From: an uncultured Chloroflexia bacterium
GTDB taxonomy: Bacteria > Chloroflexota > Limnocylindria > Limnocylindrales > CSP1-4
Direction of reading: 5' to 3'
NCBI GenBank assembly: GCA_963819655.1
Contig: CAWFXA010000002.1
Span: 512,001-576,000 of the forward strand
Length of the DNA: 64,000 bases
In this document: piece after piece, positions 36,095 to 49,005 of the stretch
Layout: each line of letters opens with the position of its first letter
How positions within the stretch are numbered: position 1 is the stretch's first letter
Notes under the pieces: generated by a model
What the model saw: the letters and a program-made list of their open reading frames with translations, nothing else
What the model was told of the DNA's origin: nothing
Database searches by the model: none
Translations under genes and position numbers: made by a program

Positions 36095-37033
36095 CTAGCT
36101 CGTGGCCAGGTTCTGGACGATCAGGATGATCGCCGGCCCGAGGATGACGATGAAGAGCGAGGGGAAGATGCACCCGACGAGCGGGAACAGCATCTTGATC
36201 GGCGCCTTCGCTGCCTGCTCCTCAGCGCGCTGGCGGCGCTCGATGCGGAGCTGCTCCGACTGGACCTGGAGAACCTTCGACACCGACACGCCGAGCTGCT
36301 CGGCCTGGATGATCGCGCCGACGAAGTTCGTCAGCGGCCCGACCTCGGTCCGCGGCACGATGTCGCGCAGCGCGTCACGGCGCGCCTTGCCGACCCGCAC
36401 CTCGGCCAGCGCCCGACGGAACTCGTCGGACAGCGGGCCCTTGAGCTTCTCGACCACCTTCGCGAGCGCGGCATCGAAGCCGAGGCCCGCGCGGACCGAG
36501 ATCGTCAGCAGGTCCAGCGTGTCGGGGATCATCAGGAGGATGGCCTTCTGGCGCTTCTTCACCCGTCCACCCAGCCAGAATTCCGGGAAGATGTACCCGA
36601 AGAGCGCACCCGCCACACCGAGCAGATAGCCGATCGGGAACGGGAAACCGAGCAGGCCGATGACGCCGAACAGGACGGCGAAGATGACGGCCCCCACGAT
36701 CGCGCCGACCGCCTTCACGCCGAGCCAGTCGGCCACACGGAGGTCCCCTGGGTTGCCGGCGAGGGCAAGACGCTTCTCGGTCCGCTCCGTGAACGACGAT
36801 GAGGCCGCACGGGACATCCGCCCCGACAGGCTCGCGACGAGCGGTCGCAGGGTTCGCTCGATGAACGGTTGCTGGAGCTCGAGTTCCTCGAGGTTCTTCG
36901 CCTGCATCGTGCCGAGCTGGGTCAGCCTGGCCTGCACCGGATCGACCGGCGAGCCGCCGGCCAGGCCGATGACGATGAGCAGGATCGCACCGGCGGCGAG
37001 CGCGGCGACGATGACGGGCATGAGGTCCGACAT
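36095..37033 (-). CDS. tadC: Tad pilus platform protein TadC (T2SSF family)
   Basis: PDTLDLL..AGLGFDAAL, AEEQAAKAPIKMLFPL. Confidence 0.92.
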   Translation of the reverse strand: MSDLMPVIVAALAAGAILLIVIGLAGGSPVDPVQARLTQLGTMQAKNLEELELQQPFIERTLRPLVASLSGRMSRAASSSFTERTEKRLALAGNPGDLRVADWLGVKAVGAIVGAVIFAVLFGVIGLLGFPFPIGYLLGVAGALFGYIFPEFWLGGRVKKRQKAILLMIPDTLDLLTISVRAGLGFDAALAKVVEKLKGPLSDEFRRALAEVRVGKARRDALRDIVPRTEVGPLTNFVGAIIQAEQLGVSVSKVLQVQSEQLRIERRQRAEEQAAKAPIKMLFPLVGCIFPSLFIVILGPAIILIVQNLATS

Positions 37034-37036
37034 CGC

Positions 37037-38041
37037 CTAGACCTCGATGTCCACGATGCGGCGGATCATCATGAAACCGATGAACATCATGAAACCACCG
37101 AAGAACAGGATGATCACGCCGGCCGGCAGGCCCGCGATCGCCGGCGGATTGGCGAACATCGGATCCATGAACCCGGGCGCTGCGACGAACAGGAAGCCGG
37201 CCAGGGCGATCGGCAGGAAGCCGACCACATAGCCCGACAGGCGCTGTTGCGCGGTGAGGGTATTGATCTCACCCTTGATGCGGATGCGCTCCCGGATCGT
37301 GTAGGCGATCGAATCGAGGATCTCCGCCAGGTTGCCACCGACCTGGTGCTGGATGGAGATCGCGGTGGCCATCAGCTCGAGGTCGTCGGACCGGACGCGC
37401 CGGACCATGTTCTCGAGTGCCTGCTCGAATGGCAGGCCGAGGTTGACCTCGCGGATGACCCGGCTGAACTCGGTCGAGATCGGCGGGCGCGACTCGCGCA
37501 CGACGAGCTCGATCGCCTGGAGGAACGACGAACCGGCGCGCAGCGCATTGGCGATGAGCGTGATCGTGTCGGGGAGCTGCTTGTTGAAGGCGTTCAGGCG
37601 GCCGCCCTTGCGGCGGTTGAGCCAGAACCGCGGGAGCAGGAAGCCGACGAACCCGCCGATGAGCAGCGCGATCGGTGACCCAAGGGCCTCGAAGAAGAAG
37701 CTGAAGATGAAGAACAGGACCGGAACGCCGACGATCGACCCGATCCAGATGAACAGGAACTCGGACGGCTTCAGCCGCAGGTCGGCACGGGCCAGCTCGC
37801 GGGCGAGGTTCGCCCCGAAGTCGCGACCCTCGACGACCTTGTTCAGGTTCGCGAGTGCCTGGCTCTGGGCGATCAGGTCGCTGATCGGCCCCTGGCCGGT
37901 CGTGACCGCCTTCGTGCCCTCGCCGCGGCCGGAGGCATAGCGCTCCAGCCGGTCGGAGATGCCCGAGTTGCCGGAGCTGGCGATGCCGAACGCGATCAGG
38001 ATGACCGCCAGGGCAGCGACGCCGGCGACGGCGAGCGTCAA
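37037..38041 (-). CDS. tadB: Tad pilus platform protein TadB
   Basis: QLPD..ANALRAG, GGNLAEILD, LTAQQRLS; true start is probably GTG 38049 with a 1-nt indel. Confidence 0.9.
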   Translation of the reverse strand: MTLAVAGVAALAVILIAFGIASSGNSGISDRLERYASGRGEGTKAVTTGQGPISDLIAQSQALANLNKVVEGRDFGANLARELARADLRLKPSEFLFIWIGSIVGVPVLFFIFSFFFEALGSPIALLIGGFVGFLLPRFWLNRRKGGRLNAFNKQLPDTITLIANALRAGSSFLQAIELVVRESRPPISTEFSRVIREVNLGLPFEQALENMVRRVRSDDLELMATAISIQHQVGGNLAEILDSIAYTIRERIRIKGEINTLTAQQRLSGYVVGFLPIALAGFLFVAAPGFMDPMFANPPAIAGLPAGVIILFFGGFMMFIGFMMIRRIVDIEV

Positions 38042-38066
38042 GGATCCACGATGTCCTCCCTCCGCC

Positions 38067-39476
38067 TCAGTACGCGAAGCCGAAGAGGCCCGGGGGCAGG
38101 TTGATGCCCATGATCTCGAACTTCTCGACGAACTTCGGCCGGATGCCCGTCGCCTTGAGGCGACCCTGGATCTTGCCCTCGACGACACCCGTCTGCTCGA
38201 AGACGAACACGTCCTGCATGACGATGACGTCGCCTTCCATGCCCTGGACCTCGGTGATGTGGGTGATCTTCCGGGTCCCGTCCTTGAGGCGGCTCTGGTG
38301 GACGATCAGGTCGACGGCGGATGCGACCTGCTCGCGGATGGCCCGCAGCGGCAGGTCGACGCCGGCCATGAGGACCATCGTCTCGAGTCGGGCGAGCATG
38401 TCGCGCGGGGAGTTGGCGTGGCCGGTCGACATCGAGCCGTCGTGGCCCGTGTTCATGGCCTGGAGCATGTCGAGCGCCTCGCCCGACCGGCACTCCCCGA
38501 CGATGATCCGATCGGGCCGCATGCGCAGGGCGTTGCGCACGAGCTCCCGGATCGGGATCGCACCCTTGCCCTCGATGTTCGGCGGGCGAGACTCGAGGGT
38601 GACGACGTGCTCCTGGCGGAGCTGCAGCTCGGCGGCGTCCTCGATCGTGACGATCCGCTCGTCATTCGGGATGAACGACGAGAGGACGTTGAGGGTCGTC
38701 GTCTTGCCGGAGCCGGTGCCGCCGGACACGAAGATGTTGAGCCGCGCCTCGACGCAGGCGCGCATGAAGTCGAACATGTCGGCAGTCGCCGTGCCGAACC
38801 GGATGAGATCGTCGACGGTGAAGGGGGACGCCGAGAACTTCCGGATCGTGATGACGGGTCCGACCAGCGAGAGCGGCGGGATGATGGCGTTGACGCGCGA
38901 GCCGTCGGTCAGCCGCGCGTCGACCATCGGCGAGGACTCGTCCACGCGCCGACCGATCGGGGCGATGATCCGGTCGATGATGCGCATGACGTGGTCGTCG
39001 TTCTGGAAGACGACGTTGGTCAGCTCGAGCTTGCCCGATCGCTCGATGTAGACCTGACGCGGGCCGTTGACCATCACCTCGGTGATGGACTCGTCGCGCA
39101 GGAGCGGCTCGAGCGGTCCCAGACCGATGATCTCGTCCGTGATCTGCTCGAGCATCCGGACGCGCTCGGCACGGGTCAGGGCGAGGCCTTCCTCGTCGAT
39201 GACCTTGCCGAAGATCTCCTCGATCTGACGGCGCACCTCGACCTGGTTGGACAGGTCGAGCTTCGGATCCAGGTCCTGGATGACCCGGTTCTGGATCCGG
39301 AACTTCACGTCCCGGAACGATTCCCGGACCGGCGCCTGCGTCTGGAGACGCGGCATCGTGGGCATCGTTGGCGGTCCACCGGCTGGCGCCGGTACGTTCG
39401 AGACCGGCGGCCCACCCGCCGGCGCCTCGCCGGAACTGCCCGGTCGAGCACTCTCGATCCGCTTCAACAGGGACAT
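38067..39476 (-). CDS. cpaF: Tad pilus ATPase CpaF/TadA
   Basis: GGTGSGKTT, LRMRPDRIIVGE, AMNTGHDG. Confidence 0.96.
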   Translation of the reverse strand: MSLLKRIESARPGSSGEAPAGGPPVSNVPAPAGGPPTMPTMPRLQTQAPVRESFRDVKFRIQNRVIQDLDPKLDLSNQVEVRRQIEEIFGKVIDEEGLALTRAERVRMLEQITDEIIGLGPLEPLLRDESITEVMVNGPRQVYIERSGKLELTNVVFQNDDHVMRIIDRIIAPIGRRVDESSPMVDARLTDGSRVNAIIPPLSLVGPVITIRKFSASPFTVDDLIRFGTATADMFDFMRACVEARLNIFVSGGTGSGKTTTLNVLSSFIPNDERIVTIEDAAELQLRQEHVVTLESRPPNIEGKGAIPIRELVRNALRMRPDRIIVGECRSGEALDMLQAMNTGHDGSMSTGHANSPRDMLARLETMVLMAGVDLPLRAIREQVASAVDLIVHQSRLKDGTRKITHITEVQGMEGDVIVMQDVFVFEQTGVVEGKIQGRLKATGIRPKFVEKFEIMGINLPPGLFGFAY

Positions 39477-39534
39477 GAGCTACACCCCTTCTCGCCCCGA
39501 GGGCCGGATTTGGCGGCCTGATCCGTCACGACGA

Positions 39535-40803
39535 TCAGCGCCATGCGAACAACGATTTCTTCTGTGTGGCCTTGCGGTTGTCTTCGGTGACGGGCGCGAC
39601 TTGCACCCGTTCGCCGACGACGGTCCGCGCGAGCCGAAGGATGTCCTGGGAGACCTGCGCCTCCCGATTGCTGAGGAAGAACGGGACGCCTCGATTGAGG
39701 GCGTAGACCACGCTCCGCCCATCGCTCACGATGGTCTCGTCGACCTTGCGTCCGATCGAATGCTCGACGTCCGTCACGCGGATGCCGAGCGCCGAGTCCG
39801 CGCGGTTGAGGATGAGGCGGACCTTCCCGCCATCGTATCCGAGCTGGTCGGCGACCTCCAGGAAGAGGCGCATGTTCTTGATGCTCGTGATCTCGAGGCT
39901 CAGCATCGTGAGGATCGTATCCGCCGAGTCGAGGATCGCCAGCGTCGTGTCGTTGAAGAACGCCGTGCAGTCGACCACCACGAGCTCATGGGTCATCCGC
40001 AGCGCTTCGATCACGCGCTTGATGCCGGCCGGTGTGATCAGCTCGGCCATCTCCGGGCTGGGCGGGGCGAGCAGGACGCGGATCCCGGCGGAGTGATTGA
40101 TGACGAACGTGTCGATCGACTCCACCTCGTGACCGGCCTGTTCGAGCTCCGGGACGAGGTCCGCGATCGACTTGTTCTTCGGGTTGAGGTTGAGCAGGAC
40201 CCCGACGTCGCCGAACTGGAACGAACCGTCGACCAGGACGACCTTCTTGCCGAGCTCGGTGGCCGCGGCCACGGCGAGATTGACGGCCACCGTCGTCCGG
40301 CCCACGCCGCCCTTCGGGCTGAACACGGCCACGACCTGGCCGGGCTCGCCGGAGGGCGTCTGGCTGGTCCCCGTGCGTGGTCCGCCGGCCTCGGCTGCGG
40401 CGACCGCCATGCGGGTCATCTTCTCCCGCTCGCGTGTGAACACCTGCCGGATCGACGCGGTCAGCTCGTCGCTGCTGAAAGGCTTGACGAGAAACTCGCG
40501 TGCGCCCGCGAGCATCGACCGGCGCAGGTAGTCCGACTCGCCCTGGACGGACATCATGATCACCGACGCCGTGGGGACCTCGCGCGCGAGCAGCTCCGTT
40601 GTGGCGATCCCGTCCATGTCCGGCATGTTGATGTCCATGAGGACGACATCCGGGTTCAGTGAGGTCGCCAGCTGCAGGGCCTCGGCCCCGGACGCGGCCG
40701 CCCCGATGACGTCGATGTCACCCTCGAAGCCCAGCAGCTTCGAGAGGTGGTCGCGCGTCTCCGGGATGTCGTCGACGATCAGGACACGGATCTGGTCGGC
40801 CAT
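39535..40803 (-). CDS. cpaE: CpaE/TadZ: receiver domain plus MinD/ParA-like ATPase
   Basis: IVDD, LMDINMP receiver motifs; SPKGGVGRTT deviant Walker A. Confidence 0.9.
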   Translation of the reverse strand: MADQIRVLIVDDIPETRDHLSKLLGFEGDIDVIGAAASGAEALQLATSLNPDVVLMDINMPDMDGIATTELLAREVPTASVIMMSVQGESDYLRRSMLAGAREFLVKPFSSDELTASIRQVFTREREKMTRMAVAAAEAGGPRTGTSQTPSGEPGQVVAVFSPKGGVGRTTVAVNLAVAAATELGKKVVLVDGSFQFGDVGVLLNLNPKNKSIADLVPELEQAGHEVESIDTFVINHSAGIRVLLAPPSPEMAELITPAGIKRVIEALRMTHELVVVDCTAFFNDTTLAILDSADTILTMLSLEITSIKNMRLFLEVADQLGYDGGKVRLILNRADSALGIRVTDVEHSIGRKVDETIVSDGRSVVYALNRGVPFFLSNREAQVSQDILRLARTVVGERVQVAPVTEDNRKATQKKSLFAWR

Positions 40804-40923
40804 CTGAGGGTCTGGCTCTCGTCCTTACTGTTCGGTTGACGCCCGACGGGCGCGGGACCCGGCTGGTCCATCGCGCCCGTCGCGCTGGGTCATGGTACCG
40901 GCGGACTGCCGGTCGTGCGGTGA

Positions 40924-41826
40924 CTAGCGCCGGGCCTGCGCCGGCAGGACCGTCTCGATGAGCTCCGGCGGCAGGACGCCGTAGCGGTCGACAAGTGACT
41001 TGAGGATGATGCCGGTGGTCGGGTCCGGCAGCGGCGGCGGATCGATGGGCAGGCCGGTCAGGGGGTCGAGGAAGTCCTCGCCCGACCGGAGGATCAGGCT
41101 GATCTCGCCATCCATCTGGGCGAACTTGATGACCTCGGCCTGCTGCGCGTCGACCGACAGGGCGACGATCTCCTGCTGGCCGGTCAGGGCCGTTCCGCTC
41201 TGGTCCGGCGCGGGCTGGCCCTCCGCGCTCTGCGCCTGCTCGGGGGGCGGTGGGAGCAGCGTGCCGAGCACCTGCATGCCCTGGAGGAGCAGCTTGACGC
41301 TCGTGCCGTTGATGCCGGAGACGACGGTGAAGGTGTCGTCGACCGGGTTGGTCGTGATGACCGGGAACTTGTCGGCGCGGATACCGACGACCATGTCGAC
41401 GTAGTCACCGGTCTTGATGACGGTGCCGACGCCCGTCACCTGGTCGACCTGGACCGTGATCGCGCGCTGGCCCGGTGGGACCTGGATGTCGAGGATCTGG
41501 CCCGGCCTGACCGCCTGACAGCGTCCGGCTGGTGATCGCCGCGCCGGTCACGACGGGCTCGCGGACGGTCTTGCCGAGGACCTGGGAGACGTCCCCGAAG
41601 GCATCGACATCGCGCCCGTCGATGGGCTTGTCCTCGACGGTCACCTTGTCCGCGGTGATCCGCGCGCCGAGCGGGATGTCGGCCGTCGCGATGACGGTCG
41701 TGCCGTGGTCGGGAGCGGTGGTGTGCCGCCGCCGCCGCCGCCCGGTTGCAGGAATATGACGGCGATGAACGCGACGATCGCCAGGAAGACCCCGACGAGC
41801 AAAACCAAGCGATTAGAACGCTTCAA
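40924..41826 (-). CDS. cpaB: Flp pilus assembly protein CpaB/RcpC (two frameshifts)
   Basis: N-terminal TM segment, SAF-like VIATADIP, VP.GQRAITV.VD..TGVG..I..GDYVD, LLLQ; split over three frames. Confidence 0.85.
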
Positions 41827-41892
41827 GAGACCTCTCCCCGAGTCGGTGGTGTGACAGGTGGCACCACTGTAGCATCGCGAAAGAGGCGCGCG

Positions 41893-41967
41893 ACTATACC
41901 AATGGGCTAGGACCCTGTGGTAGGAAACGGCAGGAATCCGCGCACCTTGCAAGGTCGATTGCAAGGT
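41893..41967 (-). promoter_or_regulatory. cpaB operon promoter region
   Basis: TGgTATAGT extended -10 (41893-41901); ACCTTGCAAGGT palindrome with repeated TTGCAAGGT (41944-41967). Confidence 0.55.
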
Positions 41968-41981
41968 TCCGCGGAGGGCAT

Positions 41982-42015
41982 GAAAGGGCCCGCCGGACGG
42001 GTGTCCGGCGGGCCC
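41982..42015 (-). terminator. intrinsic terminator after the last flp gene
   Basis: 13-bp perfect stem followed by TTTC on the minus strand. Confidence 0.75.
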
Positions 42016-42036: not shown

Positions 42037-42210
42037 TCAGACTGCGTTACCGATGACGCTGAGCTTGTCGCTGATCTGGCTTCCGAGGTAGATGAGCGCG
42101 ACGATCGCGATGACCGCGATCAACGCGAGGATGAGTGCGTATTCGGCCAGGCCCTGTCCGTCCTCGTCCCCACGGAGTCGGTCCACGAAGGACACGACAC
42201 GAGTCGTCAT
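42037..42210 (-). CDS. flp: Flp family type IVc pilin
   Basis: G|QGLAEY motif plus hydrophobic helix; GGAGGT RBS. Confidence 0.93.
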   Translation of the reverse strand: MTTRVVSFVDRLRGDEDGQGLAEYALILALIAVIAIVALIYLGSQISDKLSVIGNAV

Positions 42211-42242
42211 AGTGTTCACCTCCTTTCCACGAAGGTGCCGTC

Positions 42243-42349: not shown

Positions 42350-42367
42350 GATCGGTTGGCGGCTCGG

Positions 42368-42535
42368 CTAGACCGAGTTGCCGACGGTGCTCAGGATCGA
42401 GCTGACCTGGTTGCCCAGGAAGATCAGCGCGATGATCGCGATGATCGCGATGAGTGCGAGGATCAGCGCGTACTCCGCGAGACCCTGGCCTTCGTCACGT
42501 CGGAACGAATCGATAAGAGCAAGAAACTGCGTCAT
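42368..42535 (-). CDS. flp: Flp family pilin (55 aa, absent from the ORF track)
   Basis: MTQFLALIDSFRRDEGQGLAEYALILAL...VGNSV; AAGGAGGT RBS. Confidence 0.93.
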   Translation of the reverse strand: MTQFLALIDSFRRDEGQGLAEYALILALIAIIAIIALIFLGNQVSSILSTVGNSV

Positions 42536-42682: not shown

Positions 42683-42704
42683 CGTCCGTTGTCGGAAGTC
42701 GGTG

Positions 42705-42875
42705 CTAGACCGAGTTGCCGACGGTGCTCAGGATCGAGCTGACCTGGTTGCCCAGGAAGATCAGCGCGATGATCGCGATGATCGCGATGAGTGCGAGGAT
42801 CAGCGCGTACTCCGCGAGACCCTGGCCCTCCTCGTCACGGCGAAGCGTGGCGAGGAACGAGGTGAAGAGCGCCAT
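42705..42875 (-). CDS. flp: Flp family pilin
   Basis: MALFTSFLATLRRDEEGQGLAEY...; AGGAGG RBS. Confidence 0.93.
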   Translation of the reverse strand: MALFTSFLATLRRDEEGQGLAEYALILALIAIIAIIALIFLGNQVSSILSTVGNSV

Positions 42876-42998
42876 GCGTAGGTGCCTCCTGGATGAGTAC
42901 TCACCCCCAGATGAGGGCTGGGCCACTATATGGAGAGGTCGCGCGATCCCGAAACTGAGACGATGGTACCGGCGGTGCTCTCGCTCACCGGTACCCGG

Positions 42999-43157
42999 TC
43001 AGCCGCCGGTGGCGCGGTCGATCGCGATGCCGATGGCGGCGAGCGCGTCTGACACGGTCCCGCCGAAGACCACCAGCCAGACCGCCGTCAGGGCGCTCGA
43101 GATGGCCAGGATGAGGCCGTACTCGACGAGCCCCTGGCCGTGGTCACGCCGGCTCAT
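42999..43157 (-). CDS. flp: divergent Flp family pilin (52 aa, absent from the ORF track)
   Basis: MSRRDHGQGLVEYGLILAI...; ATGA overlap with the upstream kinase. Confidence 0.85.
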   Translation of the reverse strand: MSRRDHGQGLVEYGLILAISSALTAVWLVVFGGTVSDALAAIGIAIDRATGG

Positions 43158-44345
43158 GCGCCGGTCGTCGGAGCCGTCGCCTCGAGCGCCGGCAGGTCGG
43201 TCGCCAGGTGGAGATGTCCGCCGTCGGCCCGCAGCTCGGCCTCGACGCCGACCGACGCGGCGCGGTCCTGTATCTCATGCCACGTCGCGGCCGGCAGGAC
43301 GACGATCGATGCCCGGACCGCGGCCGCCGCGGCTTCACGTTTCGCCGTCCGTCGATCCTCGACGAGCGCGGCGAGGGCCGGCGGCAGGTTCTTGCCGGCC
43401 TCCACGGTGGGGATGGCGATATCCGTCGGCATCGTCGACTCCGCCGCGACGGCACGCGTCGCAACGACGTCGGCGGTCAGCCGATCGCTCCAGTCGAGCT
43501 TCATCGAGATGAGGTCCGGCTCGGCGCCGAGGTAGCCCGCGAGGGCCTCATCGAGGATCCGGAACAGTCCGCTCTCGAGATCCATCGGCAGGCGCTGGTC
43601 CTGTCCCATCGATTCGAACTCCACCGGGATGTCGGCCCGCCGACTGCGCTCCCGTGTCGCGCGCCGGAGCGTCGGGACGAGGCCGAGGTCGTCGAGCACC
43701 ATCGGGCGGACGTCGAAGATGAACGTCTTCGTCGCGTCGAGAGTCTGCTGGACCATCGCCACCAGGTGCTGCACCTCGACGGCCGACGCCTCGGGGTCCT
43801 TGCCGACCAGACGCTCGACGATCTGTGCCTGCAGGACGATGTTCGTGAGGCTCTGGGCCGGGCCGTCGTGCATCGCCCGCGCGATCTCGCGTCGGAGGTC
43901 TTCCTGGGCACCCATCAGCAGCCGCGCCACCGCCGGCGGCATCGGTTCGTCTCCGGCGCCGTCCGCGCCGCCGGTCCCTTCGGCCCCGACGCCGCTCAGC
44001 GCGTCGATGTAGCTCACGATCGCATCGCGATAGCGCGCAAGCGCGCGGCGCTTGCCGTCGAGCACCTCGACCTGCGTCTCCATCAGCGCCGCCCGTTTGG
44101 TCAGCCCGACCAGGGCGGCCGTCTGTTCGAGGCGCTCGGTGATGTCCGCGCTGCCCGACAGGCCCTCGCAGCTTGTCCGTCGTGGACGTGCGGCGCGCCT
44201 CGTGACGGGCAGCCTCGGTCCTGGCCTGGGCGATGAGCAGGTCGACCTCGTCCAGTTCCTTGTCGAGGGTGAGGAGGTCGTCGGCGAGCCGCGTCGACAG
44301 CGCGTCGACGCCTGTGGTCGGCTGGGTCGCGGTGTCGTTCGCCAT
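43154..44345 (-). CDS. DegS-like HisKA_3 histidine kinase with degenerate ATPase domain (frameshifts near 44100-44165)
   Basis: N-terminal coiled coil; IARAMHDGPAQ, RPMVLDDLGL; no DxGxG box. Confidence 0.8.
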
Positions 44346-45091
44346 CAATCCTCGGGCATCCGGATCCAACCCTGGCGCATCGCGTACACAACGGCCTGGG
44401 TCCGGTCGTTGACCGACAGCTTGCGCAGGATCGAGCTCATGTGGTTCTTGACGGTCTGCTCGCTGATCGTCAGCGCGTAGGCGACCTGCTTGTTGGTCAT
44501 GCCCTGCGCGATGTTGTCGAGGATCTCGACTTCGCGCGGGGACAGTGGGGCGAAGATCGGTGCGGCCTCCTGGCCGTAGACCGCCAGCTCGCGGAACTCC
44601 TTGAGGACACGCGTCGCGACCGCCGGCTTCGAGAAGACCTTGTCGTTGATGAGGAACTCGCCATCGGCGACGCGCCGGATGATCGTGACGAGATCGTCCG
44701 GTCCGACGTCCTTCAGGATGAATGCCGCGGCACCCGCCTTGATGGCGTCGAACAATGAGTCCTCGTCCTCGTTGACCGCGAGGACGATGATCCCCGTTGC
44801 CGGCAGCTCGCGCTTGATGCGCTGGGTCGTCTCGATCCCGCCGGGCGCCGGCAACGACAGGTCCATGAGGATGATGTCGGGCGACGTCTCGAGGGCACGG
44901 TCGACCGCGCTCCGCGAGTCCTCGGCCTCACCGACGACCTCGAGGTCCGACTCCCGAGAGAGGATGTTGGCGATCCCGACCCGGAACAGGGCATGATCGT
45001 CGACGATCAGGATCCGGGTCATCTCGCCGGCGGCGCGGCGGTCGGGACCACCCCGACGCCGATCCGGCCCGCCGTATTCGGTTGCGCTCAT
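44345..45091 (-). CDS. NarL/DegU family response regulator
   Basis: IVDDH, LMD, LSPRE..G.TNK..A..L.ISEQTVKNH LuxR HTH. Confidence 0.95.
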   Translation of the reverse strand: MSATEYGGPDRRRGGPDRRAAGEMTRILIVDDHALFRVGIANILSRESDLEVVGEAEDSRSAVDRALETSPDIILMDLSLPAPGGIETTQRIKRELPATGIIVLAVNEDEDSLFDAIKAGAAAFILKDVGPDDLVTIIRRVADGEFLINDKVFSKPAVATRVLKEFRELAVYGQEAAPIFAPLSPREVEILDNIAQGMTNKQVAYALTISEQTVKNHMSSILRKLSVNDRTQAVVYAMRQGWIRMPED

Positions 45092-45786
45092 CCGTTCTCC
45101 TTTGCTCCCGTCAGGTCCCCCGTCGGGATCGCGAGCCGGACCACGGTACCGCCGTCCGGTCGAGATCGTACGTCGAAGCGGGCGCCGATCAGCTCGGCGC
45201 GCTCGTTCATGACCTGCATGCCGAAATTGCGGTGGCCACGTTTGGCCACCGTGCCCATATCGAATCCGCGACCATCGTCGCGGATCTCAAGGGTCCATTC
45301 ATCGCCGGTCACGTCGGTGCTGACCATGACGGTCGAGGCGCCGGCGTGCTTGCGAACATTCTGAAGAGCCTCCTGCGCGACGCGCAGGACAACGGTCCGT
45401 TGTCGATCGTCGAGTCGATCGCTCGGGGCTCGAAGGTCGGTCGTGACGCCCATCCGCGTCGCCGATCGAAGACCATCGACGGCATCGACGAGGGCGACGT
45501 CGAGGCCGGCCGCATCGACCGTCGCCGGACGCAGCTCGGAGATGAACTCGCGGACGTTGGCCAGCTCGCGACGCAGCAACGCGCGGAGCTGACGGAGCCC
45601 GACCATCGCCGCGTTCGGGTCGCGCTCGATCAGACGTTCGATGTCGTCGACCTCGAAGATGGCGTTCGTGAGGGCCTGGGCCGGACCGTCGTGGATCTCG
45701 CGCCCGATCCTGGCTCGTTCGGCGTCAAGCGCCTCGAGGACCATCGCGGCGGCGTCCATCGGGTTCGGAGTATAGGGCTCGGTCAT
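45088..45786 (-). CDS. sensorless HisKA_3 histidine kinase
   Basis: ERARIGREIHDGPAQ, QEALQNVRKHA, DDGRGF, FGM..M.ERA, GGT. Confidence 0.9.
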   Translation of the reverse strand: MTEPYTPNPMDAAAMVLEALDAERARIGREIHDGPAQALTNAIFEVDDIERLIERDPNAAMVGLRQLRALLRRELANVREFISELRPATVDAAGLDVALVDAVDGLRSATRMGVTTDLRAPSDRLDDRQRTVVLRVAQEALQNVRKHAGASTVMVSTDVTGDEWTLEIRDDGRGFDMGTVAKRGHRNFGMQVMNERAELIGARFDVRSRPDGGTVVRLAIPTGDLTGAKENG

Positions 45787-47435
45787 GGGGTATTCCCCGT
45801 GCAGCCGATCTCGTACACGGTCGTCGTCGCGAGCGGATCGACACCCGTCGCCCGTGTACGGACCGAGATCGATCGGGGTGAAGCACTCCGCGCCAGGAAG
45901 ACCCGCCCGCAGGTCGCCCGGCCAATGCTTGCCTTCCGGGCTGGTCAGGATCAGGTAGCGCGTGCCGGTGAACGTCGCGGCCGAGATCGAGCACATCCGT
46001 CGGCGGCTCGTCCGGCAGCGCCAGCGTCGAGACGCGTTGCGTCTCGGCCACCCAGATCGGAAAGTTGCTCATCAGGCGGAGGCCGGGCGTATCGACCGGA
46101 TGACCTGCTTCGGCCAATCGGGGTCCGAGCTCCCCGTACGTCGCCGCGGTCATCCGCGATCCCGTGCCGAACGACGGCAAGAGCACGACCGAGAACAGGA
46201 GCGACGTCGCGACACTGCCGACCATCCCGACCCACGTCGATCTCGCTTGGTCCATGCCATGCGACGCCCGAGACGCGTGATGGCTGCGTCGATCGCCAAG
46301 ATCGCCGAAAGGACGACAAGGACGTGCACAGGGCCGGCCGCGTGGAGGAACGTGCCCCATTGGGTCGCCGCCGGAAAGAGCAGGCTGGTGACGATGAACA
46401 TGATCAGACTGATCAGCGACGAGCGGCCGCAGTGCGAAGCCACGGCCCTGCCACGGCAGGGCAAGCAGGCCGAGGCACTGACATGGGCAGCCCGAGAAGC
46501 ACAAGCACGTTGAACAGGTTGTGCGCGAGGCCGGTCAGGCGGAGCTGAACGAGCCCGCCCGGGCCGAGCGCCAGATGGCGGGCGAGAGTCGGGGGATCGT
46601 TCCACGCGAAGATGTCGTACCCAGTCAGGTACAGGGCATTGGTGATGGCCTGGCCGGGCAGCGGGCTGCCGAACTCGCCCAGGTTCCGATAGGCCCACGG
46701 AGCGAATACGATGCAGCGCGACGACCGCCGACGATGGCGACGAGCCGGAGGCGCACAGATGCCGGGGCGTCGACGGATCGCCAGACGAGCCCCACCCAGA
46801 TCAGCGCCAACCAGATCGTTTCGTTGCGAGTCAGGGCACCCCAGCCCGAGCAGTACACCCACGGCGATGAGGCGCGGGTCGCGAGAACCGGGCGCCGCGT
46901 GGGTCTCGGAGCGATGCGGGTCATCAGCAGGCAGGCGCCGAGCACGATCGCGGCGAACAGCATGGTCGAGTCCGGGAGGGCCGAGTTGAGCACCATCGGC
47001 AGGTAGACGGCGCTCGTCAGCCCGGCCCCGAGCCCGACCCACCGCGAGCGTTCCACGTCGAACGCCCGTTCCGAGGCGACGTCGATCGCCAGGCGCCAGA
47101 TCAACACCGGGACGACCGCGCCGACGAGGACGCTCGAACTTTGCGCCGCCGCGAATGACGTCCCGAACAGGGCCATCGGGATGACCGCCAGGAATGTCGG
47201 CAGCGGGAGCCACACCTCGAATGCCGGGCGCGGGAAGATCGAGCGGCGGCGTCGCGTAGCTCCAGAGGGCGTCGGACACGAGGCCACGACCCTCGACGAT
47301 GTTGCGGGCCACCCCAACGTAGTACGCGGTGTCCTCGGGCTTCGGGAACACGATCTGTCCTGCGAAGTACGCCCGGACGACGAGGGCCACGAGAAAGACG
47401 AGCCCGGCCGACAGGACGGCTTCGCGACGGCTCAC
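45783..47435 (-). CDS. GT-C-type membrane glycosyltransferase (multiple frameshifts)
   Basis: PEDTAYYVGVARNI, WLPL, LTRNE, PW..RN...FGS across several frames. Confidence 0.7.
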
Positions 47436-49005
47436 GAGCCGGTCTCCACGGGGAAGATCGCGAACGTCGGCGGGCGTCCCTCGAGGAGGATCGGCTCGCC
47501 GAGCCAGGCAGGTCGGGATCCGTCGAGGACCGGCGCCATCGACTTGACACTGTCGTCACGGTCGAGCACGAGCCAGCTGATGTCGTACGCCTCGACGACC
47601 TTGTGGATGGCTTCTTGCGGGTCGTTGACGAGCACCACGCCGCCGCGTCCCGTCCAGTACTTGGTCCCCGCGGCGTCGATCGACATGACCCGGTCCGAGC
47701 TCGGTGCCGCGACCCGGTCGAGAGCATCCGCGATCCGCACGAACTTGTCCCGGCTGTCTGCCCACACACCGTGCACGAATGCCGACCCGACGGCGGCCGC
47801 GCCCGACCGCGAAGACCAGCGCGGCCCCGGTGAACGCAGTGGTCGCCGCCCCGACGTTCCATGTCGGGCGCCGAGTCGCGGCCCACGCCACCGTGAGCGC
47901 GATCCCTTCGAGGGCGAGCACGTACGAATGGGGCGCGAGGGCCACTGCCGAATGGATGAAGGTGCCGCCAGGGACATGCACGGCACTGACCAACGCGGAG
48001 AAGCCGAACAGCAGCGCTGCGTAGATGAAGAACGGTCCGAAGTCAAGCGAGCGACGGCGAGCCCAGCCGCCGATCGACCATGAACGGCGCGAGCACGAAC
48101 CCCGCCACCAAGGTCGTGTAGATCATCACGGCGGCGACGAGACCACCTAGCCGGCGAGGCGAGCAATGGTCCGATCCCGACGCCCAGCAGGTGCTCGAGG
48201 GTCGCTGGGGTCGTGATGCTGTTCCACTCGCCGATGTCGCGGATGAATAGCACCTTTCCCGAGGCCGTCGATGGCGAGATCGAGCCGAAGACCGCGAGCT
48301 GGCGGAGCCACCACGGCGCCATGACCAGGACGAATAGCGCTACACACGCGGCGGCCGCCGTCCAGGGGATCGCGCGACGCCGCCAGCGGTCCCAGAGGAA
48401 CGTGCAACCGAGGGCGGCGAGCACGAGCAGCCCGTCGTTGCGCGACAGCGTTGCGAGCCCGGCGAGGAGGCCTGCTACAGCGAATGCGCGCGGCGACCCC
48501 TTTAGCCCTCGGGCGCCCATCCAGAGGGCGCCGAGGACGAGCGGCTGGAAGAGCGAGAAGTTGTCTGGCTGGGCCATGTACACGACCGACATGACGGGGA
48601 TCGCCACCAGGAGGCCGGCCCCGACCGCGACCGAAGCCGATGCCCTGGCGTCCCGTGCCATCGCCCATGTCATCGGCGCCGCCAGGGAGCCGATCAGCGC
48701 GAACGGCAGTGCCGACGCCGATCGCCGTCGGACCGAGGACCGCCAGGAATGGGACCTGGACGAGCGAGGCGAGCGGCATCCAGTGTGCGTTCGACGGGAT
48801 CGGCAGGGTCGGATCCGACGGGGATACTGCCGCCGACCTCTGGGAAGATCCAGACCACATCGATGTTGAAGCCATGGCCAGCGACGAGGCTGCGCGCGAC
48901 TTCCACGTAGTAGAAGGAGTCAGGGTAGGCCGGGTCCGGGAAGTGCCATACGAGCACGAGGCGGACGACGAGGGCGAGCCCATATAGGACGATAGGGATA
49001 CGCAC
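47432..49005 (-). CDS. GT-C-type membrane glycosyltransferase, paralog of the adjacent gene (frameshifts)
   Basis: PDSFYYVEVARSL, HWMPL, LSRNDG, PWWLRQLAVFGS. Confidence 0.7.

Follow-up and report, generated by a model that had tools for sequence, protein, structure and literature searches.

The regulator gene considered here, P0001, is located on the minus strand of the window (the whole 64-kb stretch of DNA that was analyzed) at positions 44345..45091. It encodes a response regulator of 248 aa whose translation begins MSATEYGGPDRRRGGPDRRAAGEMTRILIVDD. Pfam recovered a Response_reg domain at residues 27-139 (6.7e-25, 87.9 bits) and a GerE domain at residues 182-237 (2e-22, 79 bits), both above cut-off, and the closest relatives of solved structure in full-length alignment are VraR, NarL, and DevR (E 4.9e-30 for DevR structure 3c3w). 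Based on these domains, P0001 is a member of the NarL/FixJ family, with an N-terminal receiver and a C-terminal LuxR/GerE helix-turn-helix (HTH). NCBIfam returned nothing above cut-off for P0001, only a generic NarL-like similarity, and Pfam gave no PilZ match in the protein. In an AlphaFold2 model built from a 65-sequence alignment, receiver and HTH are confidently predicted (mean pLDDT 82, pTM 0.60). The interdomain linker, residues 145-181 (~44549-44659 of the window), is 11-13 residues longer than in three aligned VraR sequences; two helices are predicted in it (148-154 and 156-171), and the confidence is low for residues 172-180 after them.

Ahead of receiver strand β1, P0001 carries an N-terminal extension, M1-E23 (45023..45091, minus strand). 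This tail contains an arginine-rich motif, YGGPDRRRGGPDRR, that occupies exactly codons Y6-R19 (45035..45076, minus strand). A Shine-Dalgarno sequence, AAGGAG, lies on the same strand at 45097..45102, 5 nt before the ATG at 45089-45091; as ATGA, this start codon overlaps the TGA stop of the gene for the HisKA_3 kinase upstream. The extension, its ribosome-binding site, and the overlap had all been described in an initial annotation of this DNA and are present as described. The annotation had further considered the extension to be probably translated, and comparison with relatives agrees: a start codon upstream of the motif and preceded by a GGAG-type Shine-Dalgarno sequence is found in 29 of 30 orthologous loci, by which evidence the tail is translated. 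Residues 1-18 were modeled by AlphaFold2 with pLDDT < 50 and without secondary structure; this predicted disorder fits a linear motif that would fold only on a ligand or partner.

The conservation of the tail was assessed in an alignment of P0001 with its best 120 database matches (121 sequences), from which 119 homologs of 240-255 aa were kept. The mean frequency of the top residue is 0.95 at positions 6-19, 0.65 in the flanks (2-5 and 20-25), and 0.96 elsewhere, which places the motif singled out by the annotation on a par with the folded domains. Nine positions are invariant in 119/119 homologs (Y/F6, G8, [DE]10, R11, R12, R13, G14, D17, and R18), and four more are nearly so: P9 is kept in 111, and G15, P16, and R19 in 118 each. 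The tail core consensus is [Y/F]-x-G-P-[D/E]-R-R-R-G-G-P-D-R-R. Among matches to the exact-motif DNA pattern, the motif codons differ synonymously between genomes, and selection therefore acts on the peptide rather than on the RNA.

The kinase gene that precedes the regulator, HK1, occupies 45088..45786 of the minus strand, with a likely start at M71 of a 302-aa ORF and a stop that overlaps the start of the regulator. It encodes a soluble histidine kinase with HisKA_3 and HATPase_c domains; read from M71, the ~232-aa product consists of DHp and ATPase domains and has no transmembrane or sensor domain. HK1 adjoins the regulator in 32 of 32 long loci examined. A second kinase-like gene, HK2 (43154..44083, minus strand), has a Pfam match to HisKA_3 and none to an ATPase domain. 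In this genome, HK2 is split over two frames, with a plausible coiled-coil N-terminus of 60-85 aa from ~44342 and the HisKA_3 body at 43154-44083; in the relatives L179 and L180 it is a single ORF of ~380-410 aa that starts immediately after the stop of the regulator. The split, within 43154-44369, could reflect a genuine frameshift or an indel in the assembly.

Next on the minus strand are four Flp-type pilin genes in tandem (42999-43157, 42705-42926, 42368-42535, and 42037-42219), identified by Flp_Fap, DUF4244, and their paralogous repeats. Three match Flp_Fap at 1.6e-6 to 3.7e-4, all below Pfam's cut-off, and the fourth has a weak DUF4244 match only. Two of them are 98% identical over 130 nt (42367-42496 and 42704-42833), which points to recent duplication or gene conversion. 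A repeat search upstream of the pilin genes returned the pilin paralogy and one hairpin, and no operator. Just downstream of the last pilin gene, at 41986-42015, lies a perfect 13-nt inverted repeat (GGGCCCGCCGGAC / GTCCGGCGGGCCC) with a 4-nt loop, which may act as an attenuating terminator that separates the pilin genes from those for the machinery.

The Tad machinery as a whole spans 36095..41964 (minus strand) and was identified by Pfam: CpaB/RcpC, in pieces (40924-41964; RcpC), a CpaE-like receiver+ParA protein (39535-40803; Response_reg+AAA_31), the CpaF ATPase (38067-39476; T2SSE), TadB (37037-38188; T2SSF), and TadC (36095-37033; T2SSF). The CpaB/RcpC pieces lie in three successive frames, at 41641-41964 (a TM segment), 41405-41644, and 40924-41439 (the RcpC domain), and may represent long-read assembly indels or a decayed gene. 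The minus-strand order is thus HK1, regulator, HK2, four Flp pilins, CpaB/RcpC, CpaE-like, CpaF, TadB, TadC, and, at the end beyond TadC, a DUF192 gene. The same order recurs in 5/5 loci of family f1 (the window's own) and 7/7 loci of family f3 that are 12-19 kb long, the latter without HK2. The placement of the regulator at the head of an Flp/Tad operon is therefore borne out by Pfam-identified genes and by gene order in 12/12 long loci. From this conserved position, the regulator probably controls the operon.

The receiver is atypical. In a HMMER alignment to VraR, four members of the canonical receiver quintet (two Asp of the acidic pocket, the acceptor Asp, the Thr/Ser switch, and a Lys) are present (D31, D32, D77, and K127), including the phospho-acceptor Asp (D77, LMDLS; codon at 44861..44863, minus strand). 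The conserved Thr/Ser switch position, which had already been read as Ala in IIVLAV, is A105 (codon GCG at 44777..44779, minus strand) and aligns with the conserved Thr of VraR. By this alignment, the quintet is not canonical, and P0001 belongs to the family but is unusual in its switch residue. The switch position is Ala in 16/17 f1 and 13/13 f3 loci and Thr in 19/20 loci of families f4 and f83; the acceptor is Asp in all f1 and f3 loci and Glu in 18/20 f4/f83 loci. The second acidic-pocket position is Gly in f3 loci and likewise a non-acidic residue in the f4/f83 loci (L039-L058). The f4/f83 regulator has the look of a receiver variant of the aspartate-less kind that acts on another target and, judged from these residues, the whole ortholog group departs from the canonical phospho-switch.

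In the window's own 3.49-Mb genome, a six-frame scan for a single GP[DE]RR returned 202 matches, mostly in Arg-rich off-frames. Two abutting copies, 7 residues apart, occur once in all six frames, and only in the regulator gene. The single form [YF]xGPx[RK]R was found at 3 places in 2586 likely-coding ORFs of this genome, namely the regulator and two internal matches that were taken as chance. The exact-motif DNA pattern (GP[DE]RRRGGPDRR) matched 8 of 401 Chloroflexota genomes, at one site each, and a reversed control pattern matched none; all 8 belong to the window's own family (its own genome and 7 of 23 others). A GTDB-wide scan with the strict motif pattern, one genome per species, gave at least 119 matches, of which 80 were examined with their flanks. 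The same regulator accounts for 74 of them. The other 6, from high-GC genomes of Actinoplanes, Frankia, Brevundimonas, Polyangiaceae, Acidimicrobiaceae, and Solirubrobacteraceae, were judged to be off-frame by GC3 or ORF length, with L116 ambiguous. Among the 80 matches examined, the exact motif in frame is confined to this regulator family of the class Limnocylindria, and it thus marks one orthologous family rather than a widely shuffled module.

Orthologs of the regulator are present in 55 of 61 genomes of the class, and the tail takes several forms among them. Of 16 f1 rows, 7 have the full motif, 2 more have an altered second DRR, and the other 7, which include all of genus g4, have lost the second half. 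The pilus operon is still kept where the second DRR is lost (5 loci of g4 and 2 others). In f3, all 13 loci carry a shorter E-R-R-[RQK]-G-[GA]-D-R-R, without the Tyr and the Gly-Pro, in which both acidic residues of the motif are kept. The f4/f83 group (57-61% identity) has the arginine tail in 0/20 loci. In a tree of the domains only (49 rows, one truncated row dropped, midpoint root), tailed and tail-less groups are split by a fully supported long branch; because the root is by midpoint only, the tree sets no direction of change for the tail.

Likewise, Flp, CpaF, TadB, and TadC are all absent within reach, i.e., about 5 kb, in 20 f4/f83 loci of 4.7-10 kb, and this sister group keeps the triad of HK1, regulator, and HK2. 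With tail and Tad operon both present in 12/12 f1/f3 loci and neither in the 20 f4/f83 loci, tail and pilus operon go together. Full, half-degraded, or shorter, the tail forms are found in regulators that head Flp/Tad operons.

The tail had been compared with the tandem repeats of the Caulobacter Cle proteins. The repeat motif cited there is correct according to the available text of Nesper 2017, in which the arginine-rich (ARR) tandem [Y/F]xGP[D/E][R/K]R directly follows a CheY-like receiver (PMC5677366). As excerpted from Hee 2020, the Cle ARR peptide is unfolded when free and folds on its ligand (PMC7382256), an intercalated c-di-GMP dimer that it binds with a Kd of ~100 nM (PMC5677366, PMC7382256). 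The same excerpts describe the CleD peptide, AYVGPDRRRFNSADYKGPRKRKAD, residue by residue: D154, R155, and R156 contact c-di-GMP directly; D154 and D172 serve base-specific guanine recognition; the Kd rises 25-fold in Y163A, 43-fold in G165A, and 2- to 10-fold in single loop deletions; and R169 of the terminal RxxD is essential (PMC7382256). R113, a conserved Arg in receiver helix α4 of CleD, also contributes to binding (PMC5677366, PMC7382256). Among 302 ARR proteins, 294 are alphaproteobacterial and 91% are single-domain CheY homologs, and the portion of the paper available mentions no LuxR/NarL architecture among them (PMC5677366).

Next to the CleD peptide, the P0001 tail reads EYGGPDRRR------GGPDRRAAGE. 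The tandem YxGPDRR attributed to it holds in full for the first copy, Y-G-G-P-D-R-R, but not for the second, R-G-G-P-D-R-R, which starts with Arg where an aromatic residue is expected. The first block, YGGPDRRR, agrees with CleD YVGPDRRR at 7/8 positions and includes the D-R-R triplet that touches the ligand in CleD, and GGPDRR keeps the G-P and the final R of CleD KGPRKR. In both proteins, a short, disordered, Arg-rich linear segment is attached directly to a receiver with a non-canonical switch residue, a second GP-x-x-R block follows the first repeat, and acidic residues are conserved inside the motif. The differences are considerable. The P0001 repeats abut with a period of 7 rather than the 13 of CleD, leaving 4 residues between triplets as opposed to ~11 between the Cle DRR and [R/K]RxxD; P0001 has neither the 6-residue loop nor its stacking residue Y163, the loss of which weakens CleD binding; and conservation does not extend to the terminal RxxD, most P0001 homologs having x-x-G-E after RR. 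Moreover, the P0001 tail is N-terminal and that of Cle C-terminal, P0001 is a two-domain NarL-type transcription factor and Cle a stand-alone CheY, and the host belongs to the Chloroflexota whereas nearly all ARR proteins are alphaproteobacterial. The α4 of P0001 as predicted by AlphaFold2 (residues 110-119, DSLFDAIKAG) contains Lys and no Arg. In the CheY fold, β1 begins on the side of the receiver where α5 ends, so the N-terminal tail would emerge near the site of the Cle C-terminal tail.

We tentatively propose, with a probability slightly short of an even chance, that the tail is a candidate c-di-GMP sensor and a compact relative of the Cle/CSP arginine-rich peptide. In the mechanism that we envisage, an intercalated c-di-GMP dimer would have its guanine bases recognized by the two [D/E]RR triplets, with Arg on the guanine Hoogsteen edges and in cation-π stacking, Asp/Glu on N1/N2, and Tyr capping the stack. 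VraR/DesR-type regulators use the α1/α5 surface for dimerization. Since the tail would leave the receiver beside this face, the NarL-family dimerization surface, binding of c-di-GMP would favor the active dimer and would add to, or replace, phosphorylation from the sensorless soluble kinase HK1. Ligand-driven dimerization would fit a receiver with Ala at the Thr switch. Drift from the canonical phospho-switch would give room for another input, and the Ala switch of f1 and f3, together with a partner kinase that has no sensor domain, leaves such room. Here we infer the identity of the ligand, the geometry of binding, and the effects on dimerization and pilus transcription.

The best arguments for the c-di-GMP reading are the near-identity with the ligand-contacting half of the CleD peptide, the invariant Asp/Glu between the arginines, the predicted disorder, and the atypical receiver; a motif conserved against drifting flanks and the adjacency of the tail to Tad genes also speak for it. 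Enzymes of c-di-GMP turnover, whose presence the annotation had suggested checking, are encoded in the genome, with 18 matches to GGDEF and 5 to EAL against a single one to PilZ (C2:97615-97869), and this too was counted in its favor. What speaks most against the reading is that the loop and the second aromatic residue are absent, that the f3 form is shorter still, and that g4 has lost the second half. The unconserved RxxD and a motif that is not portable also weigh against it, as does the 64-kb window itself, which contains no GGDEF or EAL gene and no Rfam family, and hence no c-di-GMP riboswitch that could be found there. A phyletic correlation of the tail with c-di-GMP enzymes was considered and set aside. 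GGDEF is found in 17/17 f1, 20/20 f3, 19/19 f4, and 1/1 f83 genomes and in 0/3 of f2, whose three genomes are reduced and also lack the regulator; with GGDEF in tail-less f4 genomes too, the pattern does not discriminate and is compatible with the hypothesis.

A more specific form of the c-di-GMP reading, which we consider unlikely, is that the tail is a minimal clamp of 14 residues and that binding occurs in trans. The tails of two regulators would sandwich an intercalated c-di-GMP dimer or tetramer by the α1/α5 face in a BldD-like manner, replacing phosphorylation as the trigger of dimerization in a receiver without its Thr switch and turning Flp/Tad pilin transcription on or off. If true, linear peptides that bind c-di-GMP would have a second natural family in such clamps, which would also be the first example on a transcription factor and the first from outside the Proteobacteria and Cyanobacteria.

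Alternatively, the tail could be a docking or autoregulatory peptide that binds HK1, the kinase-dead HK2, the CpaE-like protein, or RNA polymerase, or that gates activity by folding back onto an acidic surface of its own receiver. We view this as rather unlikely, although a short, conserved, disordered linear motif is typical of docking peptides, the conserved operon places the tail gene close to two genes for kinase-like proteins and one for a receiver-ParA protein, and the tail co-occurs with the Tad operon. Yet the tail does not track HK2, as f3 has the tail without HK2 and f4 has HK2 without the tail. The low-confidence AlphaFold2 prediction leaves the tail undocked and argues against its packing stably on its own protein, and the specific likeness to the Cle motif is left unexplained. 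Improbable, too, is an auxiliary nucleic-acid-binding arm that makes extra DNA (or mRNA) contacts beside the operator. Arginine-rich arms are common on DNA-binding proteins, and the tail is flexible with five Arg in 14 residues; however, acidic residues at two invariant positions, together with a conserved Tyr-x-Gly-Pro, are unusual for backbone-binding arms, and the tail sits on the receiver, ~160 residues from the HTH. The invariant acidic residues fit base-specific guanine recognition better than a plain polyanion-binding arm.

Recognition of another anionic or guanine ligand, such as (p)ppGpp, pGpG, GTP, cGAMP, or c-di-AMP, has in our view only a small chance of being correct. Asp/Arg chemistry of this kind could also recognize other guanine nucleotides, and the compact spacing differs from the CleD loop that embraces a c-di-GMP dimer, but the only precedent for this type of motif in the sources available binds c-di-GMP (PMC5677366, PMC7382256). 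Finally, it is highly improbable that the extension by itself is functionless or that translation begins at the downstream Met (MTRILIV), a start that the annotation had left open and for which the window's own gene does offer an in-frame ATG at codon 24: this ATG occurs in 1/30 loci (with GTG in one other), most of the 119 homologs have I, V, R, or T at position 24, and a motif kept invariant despite synonymous codon changes follows an M1 with its own Shine-Dalgarno sequence.

Should the tail be a c-di-GMP sensor, P0001 would be a variant among c-di-GMP-sensing NarL-type regulators and not a new category, as VpsT and DevR, which sense the ligand by other means, are known already. The c-di-GMP-binding motif of VpsT is W[F/L/M][T/S]R, located in an additional helix of its receiver; P0001 lacks this motif, and its sole Trp is W243 in GWIR. 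In the available part of a recent review, VpsT of Vibrio cholerae is described as a c-di-GMP-sensing protein with receiver and LuxR-type HTH (PMC12564702). P0001 has the same domain order, and the logic proposed for it is that of VpsT, in which c-di-GMP rather than phosphorylation drives the active oligomer. DevR/DosR of Mycobacterium smegmatis is described in the review as binding c-di-GMP, reportedly by its C-terminal domain, and the ligand stimulates its phosphorylation by the kinase (PMC12564702). DevR resembles P0001 as a NarL-family regulator and a relative of solved structure but lacks an arginine-rich tail.

PprA-PprB of Pseudomonas aeruginosa comprises a kinase and a regulator that are encoded beside flp/tad genes and presumably control them, and HK1 is a soluble HisKA_3 kinase, as is DegS. 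We know of no arginine-rich tail in PprA-PprB or in DegS-DegU-type systems. The annotation had known of no described example of such an architecture, and none was found in the literature on ARR-type motifs with NarL/LuxR regulators; as far as its available text goes, one report uses "arginine-rich" for PilZ only (PMC12943098). A search on Limnocylindria and pili also returned no literature.

To our knowledge, linear peptides that bind c-di-GMP alone are represented by a single family, the alphaproteobacterial Cle proteins. If the P0001 tail binds c-di-GMP, the module would be evolutionarily portable or convergently reachable, and the minimal unit needed for binding would be smaller than so far defined, which would be of use in tools that sequester c-di-GMP. 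Such binding would further establish a direct link from c-di-GMP to Tad-pilus transcription in Limnocylindria, an abundant uncultured lineage of soil and freshwater with many cyclases and few recognized receptors. Tad pili of Caulobacter are under c-di-GMP control, as stated in the available text of PMC6581867. Even without c-di-GMP binding, the tail would stand as a linear motif that is invariant, specific to its lineage, and carried by a pilus regulator.

Upstream of HK1, the minus strand encodes an ORF without family assignment (46413-47435) and a PMT_2-type membrane glycosyltransferase (47432-48673); both occupy the same place in 5/5 f1 loci.
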